From contig JAZOVR010000013.1 in the NCBI GenBank assembly GCA_045658785.1, positions 13,424-77,423 of the forward strand: 64,000 nucleotides of DNA, in the 5' to 3' direction. The position numbers were made by a program, and so were the translations under genes. Source of the DNA: Paludibacteraceae bacterium. GTDB lineage: Bacteria; Bacteroidota; Bacteroidia; Bacteroidales; Paludibacteraceae. The notes beneath the pieces are model-generated. The model was not told the DNA's origin and did no database searches. It saw nothing but the letters and a program-made list of their open reading frames with translations. Positions 2-58,197 of the stretch are shown here, piece by piece; position 1 is the stretch's first letter, and each line of letters starts with the position of its first letter.

Positions 2-1138
2 GTGAGCCTCTTTATGCCTGCACTCATGGGTATCGTGGCTGACCGCTGGATTCCAGCAGAGAAAGCATTGAGTCTTTGCCACGCACTTGCAGGTACCTTT
101 ATGATTGCCACAGGCGCCTACGGTCTCATGGCAGGCGACGGCGTAGTTTTCTCTACCCTCTTCTCGCTCTACACCGCTTCGGTAGCATTCTTCATGCCTA
201 CCCTTGCGCTCAGCAACTCCGTGGCTTATACCGCATTGACACAAGCCAACCTCGACACCGTGAAGGCTTTCCCACCTATCCGTGTACTCGGTACCGTGGG
301 CTTCATCGTTACCATGTGGATCGTGGACTTATGCGGTTTCCAAGCTACTCCAAAACAATTTATCGTCAGCGGTGCGCTCAGTATTATTCTCGCCATCTAC
401 TCCCTCACTTTGCCTAAGTGTCCAGTGAAGGGTCATGTGGAGAATAAATCGCTCGTGGAGGCACTCGGATTGGAGTCATTCGCTCTGTTCAAACAAAAGA
501 AGATGGCAGTGTTCTTCATCTTCTCTATGTTGCTCGGTATGTGCTTGCAAATCACCAACGGCTACGCTAACCCATTCATTACCAGCTTCGGAGCTATTGA
601 GGAGTTTGCCGACACCTTCGGCGTACAACATGCCAATATCTTGATCTCTATCTCACAAATCTGCGAGGCATTATGTATCTTGTTTATCCCATTCTTCCTC
701 AAGAAGTTCGGTATCAAATCGGTAATGCTGATGGCCATGTTTGCTTGGGTATTGCGCTTCGGCCTATTTGGCGCGGGTGACCCAGGTATGCCAGGTGTGA
801 TCTTATTCGTATTGAGCTGCATTGTCTATGGCTTTGCTTTTGACTTTTTCAATATCTCTGGTTCACTCTATGTGGATCAAGAAACCGACCCAAGCCAACG
901 CTCTAGCGCACAAGGTTTGTTTGTGATGATGACCAACGGTTTTGGTGCCACTATCGGTACCTTGGCTGCACAAGCAATTGTTAATCATTTCGTGAATGCC
1001 GAGTCAGTGATTGCAGAAGGTCCTATGGCTATTTGGCAAGGTTGGCAAACCAGTTGGTATATCTTCGCTGGCTTTGCCTTGGTTGTAGCTCTGGCATTCT
1101 GGGTAATCTTCCCTAAAACCCCAGTGAAGAAAGACTAA
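2..1138 (+). CDS. Nucleoside:H+ symporter-type MFS permease (NupG/XapB-like), N-terminus cut by window edge
   Basis: ORF is open at the left edge (378 aa shown). It is a polytopic hydrophobic protein with a ..GIVADRWIPAEK.. loop, laid out like Bacteroidota nucleoside permeases. A hairpin terminator follows. Confidence 0.7.
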   Translation: MSLFMPALMGIVADRWIPAEKALSLCHALAGTFMIATGAYGLMAGDGVVFSTLFSLYTASVAFFMPTLALSNSVAYTALTQANLDTVKAFPPIRVLGTVGFIVTMWIVDLCGFQATPKQFIVSGALSIILAIYSLTLPKCPVKGHVENKSLVEALGLESFALFKQKKMAVFFIFSMLLGMCLQITNGYANPFITSFGAIEEFADTFGVQHANILISISQICEALCILFIPFFLKKFGIKSVMLMAMFAWVLRFGLFGAGDPGMPGVILFVLSCIVYGFAFDFFNISGSLYVDQETDPSQRSSAQGLFVMMTNGFGATIGTLAAQAIVNHFVNAESVIAEGPMAIWQGWQTSWYIFAGFALVVALAFWVIFPKTPVKKD

Positions 1139-25293: not shown

Positions 25294-25962
25294 ATGCTAT
25301 ACGTAGTTCCTACACCTGTCGGTAATTTGGAGGACATCACTTTTCGTGCGCTGCGCGTACTGAAAGAGGTGGATTTGATTTTGGCTGAAGACACCCGCAC
25401 CTCGTCCGTGCTACTAAAGCATTACGACATCCATACACCACTGAAGAGTCATCATAAGTTCAATGAACATGATACTAGTGATGATATGGCTACTCGTATT
25501 GCTGCGGGCATGACTGTGGCGCTGATTTCCGACGCTGGTACACCATGTATCTCCGACCCTGGATTTATGTTGGTGCGTGCGTGTGTAGAGCGTGGTGTAG
25601 AGGTGCAATGTCTGCCTGGTGCCACCGCATTTGTACCTGCGTTAGTGGATTCTGGTTTGCCTAATGACCGCTTCTATTTCGAGGGCTTTCTACCTCAGAA
25701 GAAAGGTCGTCAGACACGCATGAAAATCCTTGCAGAACAGACGCATACGATGATTATCTACGAGTCGCCCTTCCGACTGGTGAAGACCTTAGAACAACTG
25801 GCGGAGGTGATGGGTGGCGAGCGCAAAGCAAGCGTTAGTCGCGAGATTAGCAAACTACACGAAGAAACTCAACGAGGCACGCTTTTGGAGTTAGCTGCAC
25901 ACTACAAACAAACACCTCCTAAAGGTGAGATTGTGCTGATTATAGAAGGAAAAAAGGAATAG
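25294..25962 (+). CDS. rsmI: 16S rRNA (cytidine1402-2'-O)-methyltransferase
   Basis: 222 aa. LYVVPTPVGNLEDITFRALRVL N-terminus and the tetrapyrrole-methylase-like fold pattern typical of RsmI. Confidence 0.92.
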   Translation: MLYVVPTPVGNLEDITFRALRVLKEVDLILAEDTRTSSVLLKHYDIHTPLKSHHKFNEHDTSDDMATRIAAGMTVALISDAGTPCISDPGFMLVRACVERGVEVQCLPGATAFVPALVDSGLPNDRFYFEGFLPQKKGRQTRMKILAEQTHTMIIYESPFRLVKTLEQLAEVMGGERKASVSREISKLHEETQRGTLLELAAHYKQTPPKGEIVLIIEGKKE

Positions 25963-25987
25963 TTTATTCGTACAAAAAAATATATAT

Positions 25988-26026
25988 TGCCATTTATGTT
26001 TACCGCATAAGTGGCATTTTTTTTTA
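25988..26026 (+). terminator. Intrinsic terminator of rsmI
   Basis: GCCATTTATG-TTTACCG-CATAAGTGGC (one G-U pair) followed by T9. Confidence 0.75.
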
Positions 26027-26032
26027 TAAAAA

Positions 26033-26064
26033 TTTGCTCATTCCAGAAAAAAGCCGTACCTTTG
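26033..26064 (+). promoter_or_regulatory. -33/-7 promoter about 240 nt upstream of the acyltransferase ATG
   Basis: TTTG (26033-26036), 20-nt spacer, TACCTTTG (26057-26064). Confidence 0.55.
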
Positions 26065-26095
26065 CGGCACTGAATCAAAATCTGAGAAGATATTA

Positions 26096-26303
26096 GGTCA
26101 CTTCTATAAATTCACCATTTAAGAAATTTAAGAAGATTGACCATTAATAGTTATAGTTGGACATTTTTATATACTTTTGGCTTTTTATAGGTATCTTGCT
26201 GTTTGTCAATCAGTCACAATGCCCGCATTGCTCCCTCTTTTCGCACAGCAATCTACTCAATAAAAACCTCAAAATCATTATAAATCAATTTATAGAAGTG
26301 ACC
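26096..26303. repeat. Perfect 17-bp inverted repeat enclosing 174 bp (candidate inverton, leader stem or MITE)
   Basis: GGTCACTTCTATAAATT (26096-26112) is the exact reverse complement of AATTTATAGAAGTGACC (26287-26303). The right arm ends on the base before ATG 26304. The AT-rich interior contains a -7-like TACTTTTG (26172-26179) pointing at the gene. Confidence 0.85.
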
Positions 26304-27323
26304 ATGAAGCAGATACATGATGAGAATCGTGGCTATCGGATACTTCTCCCGCTGGTAAACTGGATGTTCCGACATTCGTACCGACATATCAAGTACGTAG
26401 GCGAGGAGAATATACCACAAGACGGTGCTGTAATCTTTGCACCTAATCACACCAACGCGCTGCAAGATGCGCTGGCGGTGTTGTCAATCAATTCCGAGAG
26501 AAAAGTATTTGTTGCTCGTGCGGACATTTTCCGTAAACCGTTGTTTGCTAAGATATTAGGGTTTATGAAGATTATGCCTATCCGTCGCATGCGCGATGGT
26601 GCGAGCGAGGTGCTCAAGAACGATGAAACAGTCGAACGCGCTATTGACACCCTTGGTGAGGGTGTACCTTTCTGCATTCTGCCAGAGGGGACTCATCGCA
26701 CTAAACACTCGCTATTGCCATTAGGTAAGGGAATCTTTCGTATCACTTTGCGTGCCAACGAGAAATTCGGACAAGAGAAACCAATCTACATCGTGCCTGT
26801 GGGGCTGGAGTATAGCGACTGGTTCCACCTCTGGGATACTCTCATTATCAATATTGGCAAACCTATCAACATGACTCAATTCATCGCTGAGCATGCAGAT
26901 TTAGAGCAACCTAAGTTGATTCTTGCTATGCGTGAAGAACTCACCAACCGCATGCGTGAGCAAATCCTTTGGGTGCCAGATGATGAGAATTATGAGAAGA
27001 ACTGGGACAAACTCAGCCACAATCGCCCAGCTAATAAGAACTGGTTTCCAAAACACCGAATGCCGAAATGGCTATTGCTCTTGATGTTAGTTTTGATGTC
27101 GCCTCTCGCATTGGTGGCAGGTGTAGTGACATTGCCATTGTGGTTGGCATGGCTGATTATCCGTTGGGCTATAAAAGACCCTGCTTTCCACAACTCGGTG
27201 CAGTTTGTTTGGCAATTGATTATCATTCCTTTGACTGGATTTATCACGATGCCATTTTGGATGTTCTTGCAAGAGTATATGTACCTTGCTCGCAAACTCA
27301 ACAAACCTGAAGAAACAAAATAA
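26304..27323 (+). CDS. Lysophospholipid / 1-acyl-sn-glycerol-3-phosphate acyltransferase family protein with C-terminal TM segments
   Basis: Acyltransferase blocks APNHTNALQDA and ILPEGTHRT; two C-terminal hydrophobic helices. I chose ATG 26304 (MKQIHDENRGYR...) rather than the TTG-initiated ORF start at 26157. Confidence 0.8.
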   Translation: MKQIHDENRGYRILLPLVNWMFRHSYRHIKYVGEENIPQDGAVIFAPNHTNALQDALAVLSINSERKVFVARADIFRKPLFAKILGFMKIMPIRRMRDGASEVLKNDETVERAIDTLGEGVPFCILPEGTHRTKHSLLPLGKGIFRITLRANEKFGQEKPIYIVPVGLEYSDWFHLWDTLIINIGKPINMTQFIAEHADLEQPKLILAMREELTNRMREQILWVPDDENYEKNWDKLSHNRPANKNWFPKHRMPKWLLLLMLVLMSPLALVAGVVTLPLWLAWLIIRWAIKDPAFHNSVQFVWQLIIIPLTGFITMPFWMFLQEYMYLARKLNKPEETK

Positions 27324-56781: not shown

Positions 56782-58197
56782 ATGAGATGGTTGGCGGCAC
56801 ATACATGGTTGATAGCATTGGTGCCGTTGGTAGTGATAATATGGGTAAGCGGCTATACAGGTAAGCCGCTTAACTTATTGAAAGACACTGAAGTAGGCTA
56901 TATTGGTAAAGATACGGTTCTAGCGATGCGCCTACAGAGCGAAGGACAAGAAAAAGCTAAGACCATACGCTATGAAGCAACGGTAGAAGACGGGAGTAAA
57001 GTGTTGCTCTACCTGCAAAAAGATAGCCTCATGATGCCTAAAAGGGGGGATGTATTGTTGGTGCAAACGACTGTTAAAAGAGGCGATCAATTGGGAGAGT
57101 TTGACTATGGATTGTATCTTAGGAGGCAAGGGATAGCAGGCACATGTTGGGCATATAGAAGAAACTGGCAAGTGATTGGTCATGAGGAAGATAGGAGTAT
57201 CAAAGGATATGCACGAAGATGTCAATACTATCTGCACCAACAATACCAAAAAATGGGGATAACGGGCAAAGAGTTGGGCATCCTTTCCGCACTAACCTTG
57301 GGCTACCGTGAAGAATTGGACAAAGACGTACAACGCGTTTTTTCAGCTTCGGGCGCGATGCATGTATTGGCAGTCAGTGGTTTGCACACAGGAATCGTGT
57401 GGGGTGCTATCGTCTGGCTTTTGACTTTGGGAGGATGGAAGAAACCATTGTGGGACGAGAAGGGCAAGCGTTGGCTGCTGAATATCAGTTCGATCATGCT
57501 GATTTGGGCATACGCGTTGATCACGGGCCTGAGTCCATCGGTGATGCGAAGCGCATTGATGTTGAGTTTTTGGGCTTTGAGCAATCTATTTGAGCAATAT
57601 ACCTCGCGATGGAATCCCGTGTTAGCAGCAGCTTTTATCATTCTGGTAATCAATCCATTAGCATTATGGAGTGTGAGTTTTCAGTTGAGTTTTGCAGCAG
57701 TGATAGGTATCATGTGGGCAGGCAGTAAGATGCAGCGAATGGTGATTTTGCATGGGAGAATATGGCAGTACATCGGAGGATTGCTGCTGGTTTCAGTAGC
57801 CGCACAGGTAGGTACGATGCCGTTGACGTTGCATTATTTCGGGCAAACGAGCAACTATTTTGCGCTGACAAATCTGATAGTAATTCCCATGGCAGGATTG
57901 CTTTTGGTATTGGGTTTCAGTACGTTATCCATGTCGTGGTGCGTAGTCGGGGAATGGTTAGGAGCGGCCACCAAATGGTGTACGTGGGTCATGCGGGAAG
58001 CCGTAGAATGGGTAGAGAGTTTGCCTTTTTCAACGACCCAGATACATTTAAGTAGCGAAAGTGTAGTGGGGCTTTACTGCGCGTTTATTTGTGGATTGCT
58101 CATGCTACGTGGCGGCAAAGTACATTGGTGGTGGCTAATCGGAGTGGTCGTTAGTTTGGTTGGGATAATGAATTTTGAATTAAGAATTATGAAATAG
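56782..58197 (+). CDS. comEC: ComEC/Rec2-family DNA internalisation channel protein, short form without metallo-beta-lactamase domain
   Basis: 471 aa. N-terminal TM plus OB-like region. Competence domain with ..VFSASGAMHVLAVSGLH.. and multiple TM helices. It ends ..NFELRIMK* inside an AT-rich heptamer block. Confidence 0.82.
   Translation: MRWLAAHTWLIALVPLVVIIWVSGYTGKPLNLLKDTEVGYIGKDTVLAMRLQSEGQEKAKTIRYEATVEDGSKVLLYLQKDSLMMPKRGDVLLVQTTVKRGDQLGEFDYGLYLRRQGIAGTCWAYRRNWQVIGHEEDRSIKGYARRCQYYLHQQYQKMGITGKELGILSALTLGYREELDKDVQRVFSASGAMHVLAVSGLHTGIVWGAIVWLLTLGGWKKPLWDEKGKRWLLNISSIMLIWAYALITGLSPSVMRSALMLSFWALSNLFEQYTSRWNPVLAAAFIILVINPLALWSVSFQLSFAAVIGIMWAGSKMQRMVILHGRIWQYIGGLLLVSVAAQVGTMPLTLHYFGQTSNYFALTNLIVIPMAGLLLVLGFSTLSMSWCVVGEWLGAATKWCTWVMREAVEWVESLPFSTTQIHLSSESVVGLYCAFICGLLMLRGGKVHWWWLIGVVVSLVGIMNFELRIMK
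58169..58197. repeat. AT-rich heptamer block AATTTTG AATTAAG AATTATG AAATAG
   Basis: Read directly. It encodes the last 8 residues and the stop of comEC. Confidence 0.8.

Follow-up and report, generated by a model that had tools for sequence, protein, structure and literature searches.

A 17-bp inverted repeat abutting the start codon of a PlsC-type acyltransferase gene in a ruminant-gut Paludibacteraceae bacterium most probably represents the termini of an inserted 208-bp MITE

The locus studied here belongs to a Paludibacteraceae bacterium from the ruminant gut and lies in a 64-kb stretch of its DNA, which is referred to below as the window; related loci come from Paludibacteraceae MAGs of the ruminant hindgut. 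Upstream of the region of interest there is an open reading frame identified as rsmI (25294–25962, TIGR00096 match), which is followed on the plus strand by an intrinsic terminator at positions 25988–26025, consisting of a 12-pair stem (25988–26016) and a run of nine T. This terminator is situated outside the element described below and delimits the acyltransferase transcription unit on its upstream side. The native promoter of the acyltransferase gene, P1, occupies positions 26033–26064 of the plus strand and is composed of a −33 TTTG (26033–26036), a 20-nt spacer and the −7 box TACCTTTG (26057–26064). It is known that TAnnTTTG is the −7 consensus of Bacteroidota (PMC4747536, PMC8748976). The canonical promoter that an earlier note on this DNA had placed upstream of the left arm of the repeat is indeed present there, is of Bacteroidota type and is conserved among orthologues: P1 is kept in nearly all orthologous loci, where the end of its −7 box is separated from the ATG by approximately 21–31 nt. 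The gene itself is intact, extends on the plus strand from 26304 to 27323 and codes for a PlsC-type acyltransferase of 339 aa (PF01553, E = 1.6e-18), which agrees with the lipid acyltransferase identity previously ascribed to it; its close relatives are named 1-acyl-sn-glycerol-3-phosphate acyltransferase in database sources. Further downstream a DUF819 membrane protein and an Omp85-family protein are encoded. Exact-protein look-ups for RsmI and DUF819 of the window matched no record.

Between P1 and the gene, the sequence GGTCACTTCTATAAATT at positions 26096–26112 (left arm) is the exact reverse complement of AATTTATAGAAGTGACC at positions 26287–26303 (right arm). The arms are separated by 174 nt, and the right one stops at 26303, so that it directly abuts the ATG at 26304; the coordinates, the perfect complementarity, the length of the interior and the contact with the start codon were all confirmed from the sequence. 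To be regarded as a feature the repeat has to exceed what arises by chance, and it was described as doing so. In 60 dinucleotide-preserving shuffles of the window, with loops of 20–500 nt allowed, the longest perfect inverted repeat was 11–15 nt versus 17 nt in the window, and since an arm of this length appeared in none of the 60 shuffles, the 17-bp repeat can be considered as a non-chance feature. The second-longest inverted repeat of the window (14 bp, 57052–57246) is located inside a coding region and falls within the range of the shuffles; it was therefore discarded. Elsewhere in the 64-kb window the 17-mer found no match with up to three mismatches allowed. Three readings of this arrangement had been offered, namely an invertible promoter segment, a regulatory RNA stem and a MITE of about 208 bp.

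For comparison, 60 acyltransferase loci from species-representative genomes were used, about 50 of them with a readable upstream region, and most of these approximately 50 loci are empty: the conserved promoter is followed by a leader of about 20–30 nt running straight into the start codon. The empty site has the sequence …CTGAGAAGAT|ATGAAGCAG, which across relatives takes the form …CTGAGAAGA(C/T)ATGAAGCAG or the longer form …TACCTTTGCAGCACTGAATCAAAATCTGAGAAGA(C/T)ATGAAGCAG, and the window reads …CTGAGAAGAT ATTA (GGTCAC…208 bp…GTGACC) ATGAAGCAG. At the junction, GAAGAT|ATGA|AGCAG of the empty relatives is opposed to GAAGAT ATTA (element) ATGA AGCAG of the filled locus, and the empty consensus at the target, GAAGA(C/T)|ATGAAG, is intact in most of the approximately 50 orthologues. 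Because most orthologues with a readable upstream region are empty, the segment has to be regarded as an insertion. The alignment of orthologous loci, which the earlier note had named as a check, thus found the arms absent from most of them, i.e. not conserved.

The 212 extra bases were found, among the orthologous loci, only in the window and at L001, L002 and L005, always in the same orientation and with 93–100% identity. Five more loci represent decayed alleles. At L018 the 17-bp right arm alone is preserved beside the ATG, and at L022, L027, L028 and L058 there is ATTAG followed by the last 31 bp of the right end, a remnant that is fixed in 10 assemblies; the right arm beside the ATG is retained in every decayed allele. 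Contigs P0130, P0138 and P0144 represent lineages without the element. The altered left duplication ATTA is common to all full copies at the acyltransferase locus, and this shared left junction argues for one insertion with later internal deletions in some lineages. In the neighbour-joining tree of the acyltransferase gene the insertion-bearing loci are not grouped. We attribute this mismatch to poor resolution or to recombination between close species rather than to repeated insertion, since the species are very close and the tree was built from a single 1-kb gene; given the altered left duplication shared by the full copies, it was not taken as evidence of multiple insertions.

The element is not confined to this locus. 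Scanning of metagenome contigs with the 17-mer returned 79 loci, many of which are chance matches in unrelated sequence, while about 20 match the whole element and nothing else, being 72–83% identical and having unrelated flanks. The search for other copies of the 17-mer, also suggested earlier, has thereby revealed about 20 dispersed copies with the same termini in gut metagenomes. A profile made from 11 full copies recovers the family at E = 1e-18 to 1e-57. At least 13 distinct family loci were contributed by a single metagenome, JAEIGA01, from which L001 was also obtained, and in one contig (L073) two partial copies are found 2.3 kb apart. Full copies are 198–229 bp long, within the range of about 50–800 bp expected of MITEs, and have no coding capacity, and their 17-bp terminal repeat is perfect in 9 of 11. 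The 4-mers flanking the element are identical at L127, L132 (TTAA), L118 (TTTA) and L067 (TAAA) and agree at three of four bases in the window, at L122 and at L083, so that the eight loci with both flanks readable comprise four identical duplications, three with 3/4 bases and one poor. Loci L067, L118 and L076 differ in their flanks but have one and the same 30-bp insertion in the interior of the element, and this speaks for a recent transposition of the subfamily.

No transposase ORF was detected beside any arm in the 79 metagenome loci or in the one matching viral contig, all of them recovered with exact 17-mers. Several neighbours of the arms were tried as candidates for a parent IS and rejected: L073 carries sufS, an EEP-family gene and Hsp20, L115 a VapE-like protein, L077 a small HTH-like ORF and L128 a 50-bp remnant, none of these loci offering a transposase. 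In the plasmid collection blastn gave no match to the family, and the single 17-mer match in viral contigs is located inside a 1571-aa ORF and looks like chance. A transposase of the DDE type would fit the GG termini and the A/T-rich duplication of 4 bp. With Rfam gathering thresholds the whole window yielded a tRNA and nothing else, leaving the element unmatched, and in the Rfam E-value scan of positions 25900–26450 no match on the element fell below E = 2.2. With no match in Rfam, in the plasmid collection or in the literature searched, the family appears to be undescribed. Against the MITE model it counts that the search brought up neither an autonomous element nor a transposase associated with such termini, and that the 64-kb window contains one copy.

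At the acyltransferase locus the element occupies positions 26096–26303 in plus orientation, its right end facing the gene, and over these 208 bp it matches the 11-copy profile from end to end (E = 3e-56). Its left terminal inverted repeat (26096–26112) is the terminus found on the approximately 20 dispersed copies, and the right one (26287–26303) now provides leader positions −17 to −1. The left target-site duplication ATTA (26092–26095) differs in one base from its right counterpart ATGA (26304–26307, plus strand), which is composed of the start codon plus one base, and it follows from this pair that the target of insertion was the start codon itself. The statement that no target-site duplication accompanies the repeat was therefore wrong: three of four bases agree here, and the duplication is perfect in other copies. 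The duplication of the window, being imperfect, can alternatively be parsed as a 2-bp AT duplication with two extra bases. The only open frame in the element runs from TTG 26157 into the gene and is interrupted in L005; a hydrophobic N-terminal extension of the acyltransferase by 49 aa, starting from this TTG, was rejected for this reason.

MITEs are recognised by the combination of small size and lack of coding capacity with inverted repeats at the termini, duplication of the target site, copies dispersed over several loci and an empty site (PMC10969869). The segment is inserted relative to its relatives, family copies with duplications are present elsewhere, and the acyltransferase locus has gone through a single event followed by partial decay. 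Most probably, therefore, the inverted repeat represents the termini of a 208-bp non-autonomous transposable element of a family dispersed in ruminant-gut Bacteroidales, and we estimate the probability of this reading as approximately 0.87. Of the three readings offered before, it is the MITE that the empty orthologous sites, the dispersed copies and the 4-bp duplications bear out.

Besides its termini, the element is best conserved in the block TTTTTATATGCTTTTGG and in an imperfect hairpin about 85 nt long. In the window this core hairpin (26182–26266, plus strand) comprises 25 pairs, with an apical stem formed by 26217–26221 and 26226–26230. Across 12 distinct copies 93% of its cells are standard pairs versus 39–53% with the 3′ partners slid by 1–3 columns, both sides are changed in 15 of 25 hairpin pairs versus 1–5 in the slid controls, and the observed values were reached by 0 of 500 shuffles. 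The apical stem, for instance, is CAATGC/GCATTG in the subfamily of the window and GCGTAGC/GCTACGC in another one. Since pairing and both-side changes exceed the slid controls as well as the 500 shuffles, the hairpin is considered to be under constraint, which may act either on DNA, in transposition, or on RNA. An intrinsic terminator it is not, because no T run follows the hairpin on either strand. Slightly upstream of the hairpin there is the −7-like box TACTTTTG (26172–26179, plus strand) of a candidate internal promoter, P2. The part of the earlier description that concerns its presence and its direction toward the gene is correct, but neither TTTG nor TTG was found at the usual −33 distance from it. 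A canonical TAnnTTTG box is seen only in copies at the acyltransferase locus (window, L002 and L005), whereas the other 11 copies with a locatable box have TGnnTTTG, so that the box of this locus differs from the family consensus by a G-to-A change.

Based on these data one can propose how the insertion took place and what it may have done to expression. A transposase supplied in trans would have cut a 4-bp stagger at ATGA, that is, at the start codon plus one base, and the element would have inserted there with duplication of ATGA, the upstream copy of which now reads ATTA. The native leader of about 20–30 nt was thereby extended to about 235 nt, with positions −17 to −1 taken from the right terminus of the element. 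The transcript from P1 is predicted to fold with both termini paired, and the predicted cost of opening positions −20 to +13 around the AUG in it is 16.2 kcal/mol, versus 8.1 kcal/mol in a transcript that begins at the internal box and 8.3 kcal/mol in the leader of an orthologue lacking the element. In Bacteroidota translation initiation is adjusted through the folding of the mRNA around the start codon (PMC6847099), and for this reason P1 transcripts, in which the 17-bp stem would lie over the initiation region, should be translated poorly. Expression is probably rescued by transcription from the TACTTTTG box inside the element, since transcripts of this kind are devoid of the left arm. The acyltransferase gene is intact in all insertion-bearing lineages. 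That the canonical box occurs only here, that the initiation region of internally started transcripts is predicted to be as open as the ancestral one and that in several lineages the greater part of the element has been lost by deletion, which restored a short leader, suggests that the insertion was accommodated rather than neutral. Speaking against this model of expression are the lack of a −33 element at the correct spacing from P2 and the natural variant L158, in which the −7 box is mutated.

The position of the right end deserves separate consideration. At 5 of about 15 independent loci a long ORF has its first ATG 0–5 nt away from it: 0 nt in the window (339 aa), 2 nt at L065 (317 aa), at L122 (at least 212 aa) and at L128 (230 aa), and 5 nt at L067/L094 (135 aa), while 0 of about 10 left ends come that close to a start codon. 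By a crude null, in which gene starts were called mechanically, 4.9% of the intergenic all-A/T tetramers of the window are situated as close, which gives a binomial P of about 6e-4; the copies counted were found by an exact 17-mer, which over-samples arms conserved as leaders, and deletions cannot enter the gene. One may suppose from this that the MITE has been domesticated, i.e. that it serves as a portable promoter and leader cassette and is now a functional regulatory part of the acyltransferase gene, its right end being selected for or targeted to start codons and its core hairpin acting in RNA, for example in stability or processing. Such a reading extends the MITE explanation and does not contradict it. 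The start adjacency agrees with it, and so do the covariation of the core hairpin, the canonical TAnnTTTG confined to the acyltransferase locus by a G-to-A difference and the right arm always kept beside the ATG in decayed alleles. However, the adjacency could stem from survivorship and from detection by the exact 17-mer, a preference for A/T-rich targets may contribute to it, the null uses rough gene calls, and covariation of the hairpin could reflect a need of transposition at the DNA level. Because of the rough null and the bias of detection and survivorship we regard domestication as a portable cassette as a possible but rather unlikely reading. In its most explicit form it would describe a cassette suited to Shine-Dalgarno-less Bacteroidota, which lands or is retained at start codons, swaps the leader and carries a constrained 85-nt RNA hairpin, the acyltransferase gene now depending on a MITE-borne promoter and leader after one G-to-A change that gave a canonical −7 box. 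This scenario is speculative and, we think, improbable.

Much less can be said for a dedicated riboregulator or RNA thermometer, in which the stem would have evolved to occlude initiation of acyltransferase translation and would open with temperature or ligand. The folding check supported one part of this earlier proposal: the stem is predicted in the P1 transcript, where it approximately doubles the opening cost of the initiation region, so that occlusion in P1 transcripts stands as a prediction. The dedicated purpose does not stand, as the stem is missing in most orthologues, whose leaders are short and unstructured. Copies at unrelated loci have the very same arms, which means that the complementarity was inherited from the transposon; the arms do not covary, being invariant or, as in variant L159, broken by an uncompensated mismatch, and no Rfam match was obtained. 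The predicted opening energy changes little with temperature, being 18.7 kcal/mol at 25 °C and 14.3 kcal/mol at 45 °C. Since the arms are complementary as termini of a transposon, the stem is better understood as a side effect of insertion than as an evolved sensor, and the regulator reading is to be considered as very improbable.

Least credible of all is the inverton, where a recombinase acting in trans would flip 26113–26286 and switch the gene between two expression states. Its geometry fits (perfect 17-bp arms 174 bp apart, with a −7-like box inside directed toward the gene), and invertons of such size are common in Bacteroidales (PMC8748976, PMC11892184). However, arms and core recur at about 20 unrelated loci flanked by target-site duplications, a signature of transposition and not of a switch tied to one locus, and a flipped orientation was seen in 0 of 13 independent assemblies of the filled locus, each reporting the majority orientation only. 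These 13 comprise the window, L001, L002 and L005 together with nine additional contigs (among L152–L161) that come from different samples; sources with the filled locus include ERZ28633568, ERZ28019155, ERZ27297789 and GCA_017558065.1. The exact L002 protein has 29 contigs on record, and the 10 listed, one of which is the L002 contig, all have the orientation of the window. The apparent same-locus pairs L067/L094 and L066/L130 also agree in orientation, and a mismatch is present in the right arm of variant L159. Nine ORFs in the surroundings of the site were scanned, and none of them codes for a recombinase. The flipped junction, …AAATGGTG-AATTTATAGAAGTGACC-ATGAAG, gave 0 matches when metagenome contigs were scanned, a result that was given no weight, since the forward junction is also absent from that collection.

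Among known systems the closest functional analogue of the inserted MITE is the Correia elements (CREE/NEMIS) of Neisseria (PMC2649163, PMC2229807). Those are MITEs of 100–200 bp that have long inverted repeats at both termini and duplicate a short A/T target; they insert beside genes, may bring promoters along or generate them at their ends and, folded into a long hairpin upon co-transcription, alter expression of the neighbour, as is predicted here. They belong, however, to another phylum and have no sequence similarity to the present family, they duplicate TA instead of 4 bp, and their −10/−35 promoters are formed at the ends, whereas the element of the window has a candidate Bacteroidota −7 box inside. 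BrickBuilt of Porphyromonas gingivalis (PMC4596501) is likewise an intergenic, multi-copy, non-coding repeat of Bacteroidales with small inverted-repeat ends, and its promoter activity was shown experimentally (PMC4596501). It differs in that it is constructed on a 23-nt minisatellite and is found 49–591 nt from coding sequences, while the family described here has a unique hairpin core, no tandem repeat and a position 0–5 nt from the start codon at several loci; the two have no sequence relationship. Bacteroidales invertons (PMC8748976, PMC11892184, PMC4747536) also have 10–30-bp inverted repeats around a few hundred bp with TAnnTTTG upstream of a gene, but they are locus-specific substrates of recombinases seen in both orientations, whereas the element of the window is dispersed, makes duplications and is seen in one orientation. 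ERIC, RUP and BOX (PMC2229807, PMC3049150, PMC10969869) are small interspersed repeats as well, which form a long stem-loop in RNA and can alter flanking expression, yet they are unrelated sequence families of Proteobacteria and Firmicutes.

Thus, what looked like a phase-variation switch or a riboregulator becomes an insertion of a mobile element, ordinary in its kind and unusually precise in its position. For inverton predictors working from sequence only this is a caution, since a MITE with a promoter-like box has the geometry of an inverton. For the biology of these bacteria it offers a natural example of a Shine-Dalgarno-less organism in which a transposon terminus has taken the place of a gene's entire 5′ leader, and the full, decayed and empty alleles in related species make up a series in which the role of leader structure and promoter position in Bacteroidota translation can be tested.

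Of 14 independent loci carrying the MITE (208 bp in the window, 26096–26303), 6 have the tetranucleotide AGAT within 16 nt outside its right end, as compared with 5.4% of background 16-nt windows. Such sites are located in the right flanks of L066, L067, L069, L118 and L122, all of them dispersed copies of the element. On the opposite side the window (26082–26095) and another dispersed copy, L130 (2042–2053), have the left flank GAAGATATTA in common, and AAGAAGAT is present inside the element approximately 25 nt from its left end. The occurrence of AGAT near the ends may reflect a preference in the target site or protein binding.

In two dispersed copies (L076, ~90–130; L094, about 515–600, minus strand) the loop of the core hairpin, the conserved imperfect hairpin of the MITE, contains an inserted, nested palindrome some 40 bp long, …CACCCCAAAAA(T/G)(C/T)CACGA(G/A)(A/C)TTTTTCGGGGACCCCG…. 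This palindrome appears to represent a further family of repeats, smaller than the MITE, which inserts into hairpin loops. The second-longest perfect inverted repeat of the window (57052–57065 and 57233–57246; 14-bp arms, 167-nt loop) is probably a product of chance, since its length falls inside the range obtained with dinucleotide-preserving shuffles and it sits within an ORF of 471 aa.

The reading frame of the acyltransferase gene adjoining the MITE remains open for 49 codons upstream, running across the element from a TTG (26157–26303) and potentially encoding the hydrophobic stretch DIFIYFWLFIGILLFV. An N-terminal extension of the enzyme by these 49 codons was considered and rejected: the same frame is broken by stops in L005, another locus containing the element, and its openness was therefore taken as a coincidence. 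Gene callers may over-extend the acyltransferase.

Different alleles of the acyltransferase locus were registered on two contigs of one and the same MAG in JAZNKZ01 (L016 and L021) and in JAXJWX01 (L003 and L058), where an empty site on one contig contrasts with the 31-bp remnant of the element on the second. Such pairs indicate strain mixtures in the bins. In another lineage (L142–L151, about 2221–2365) the acyltransferase gene is separated from the DUF819 gene by 30, 92 or 143 nt depending on the sample, the longer spacers being built from GC-rich GTTAGA(C/A)CGC-like modules, which are another small variable repeat at this operon. An approximately 11-nt tandem repeat (CGGTAGATATA-like, ~5 units) was observed upstream of the promoter in one lineage lacking the MITE at this locus (L162–L167), about 100–150 nt upstream of the called start; the acyltransferase is annotated there as a protein of 374 aa, the gene caller having run through the promoter. 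The upstream neighbor of the conserved promoter–acyltransferase block also varies among close lineages (25294–26032 in the window versus L152–L161, L178–L187 and L142–L151): the window has rsmI in this position, lineages of the L002 and L022 types have GAPDH and that of the P0130 type has YceG/MltG, so that a rearrangement breakpoint lies just upstream of the acyltransferase promoter.
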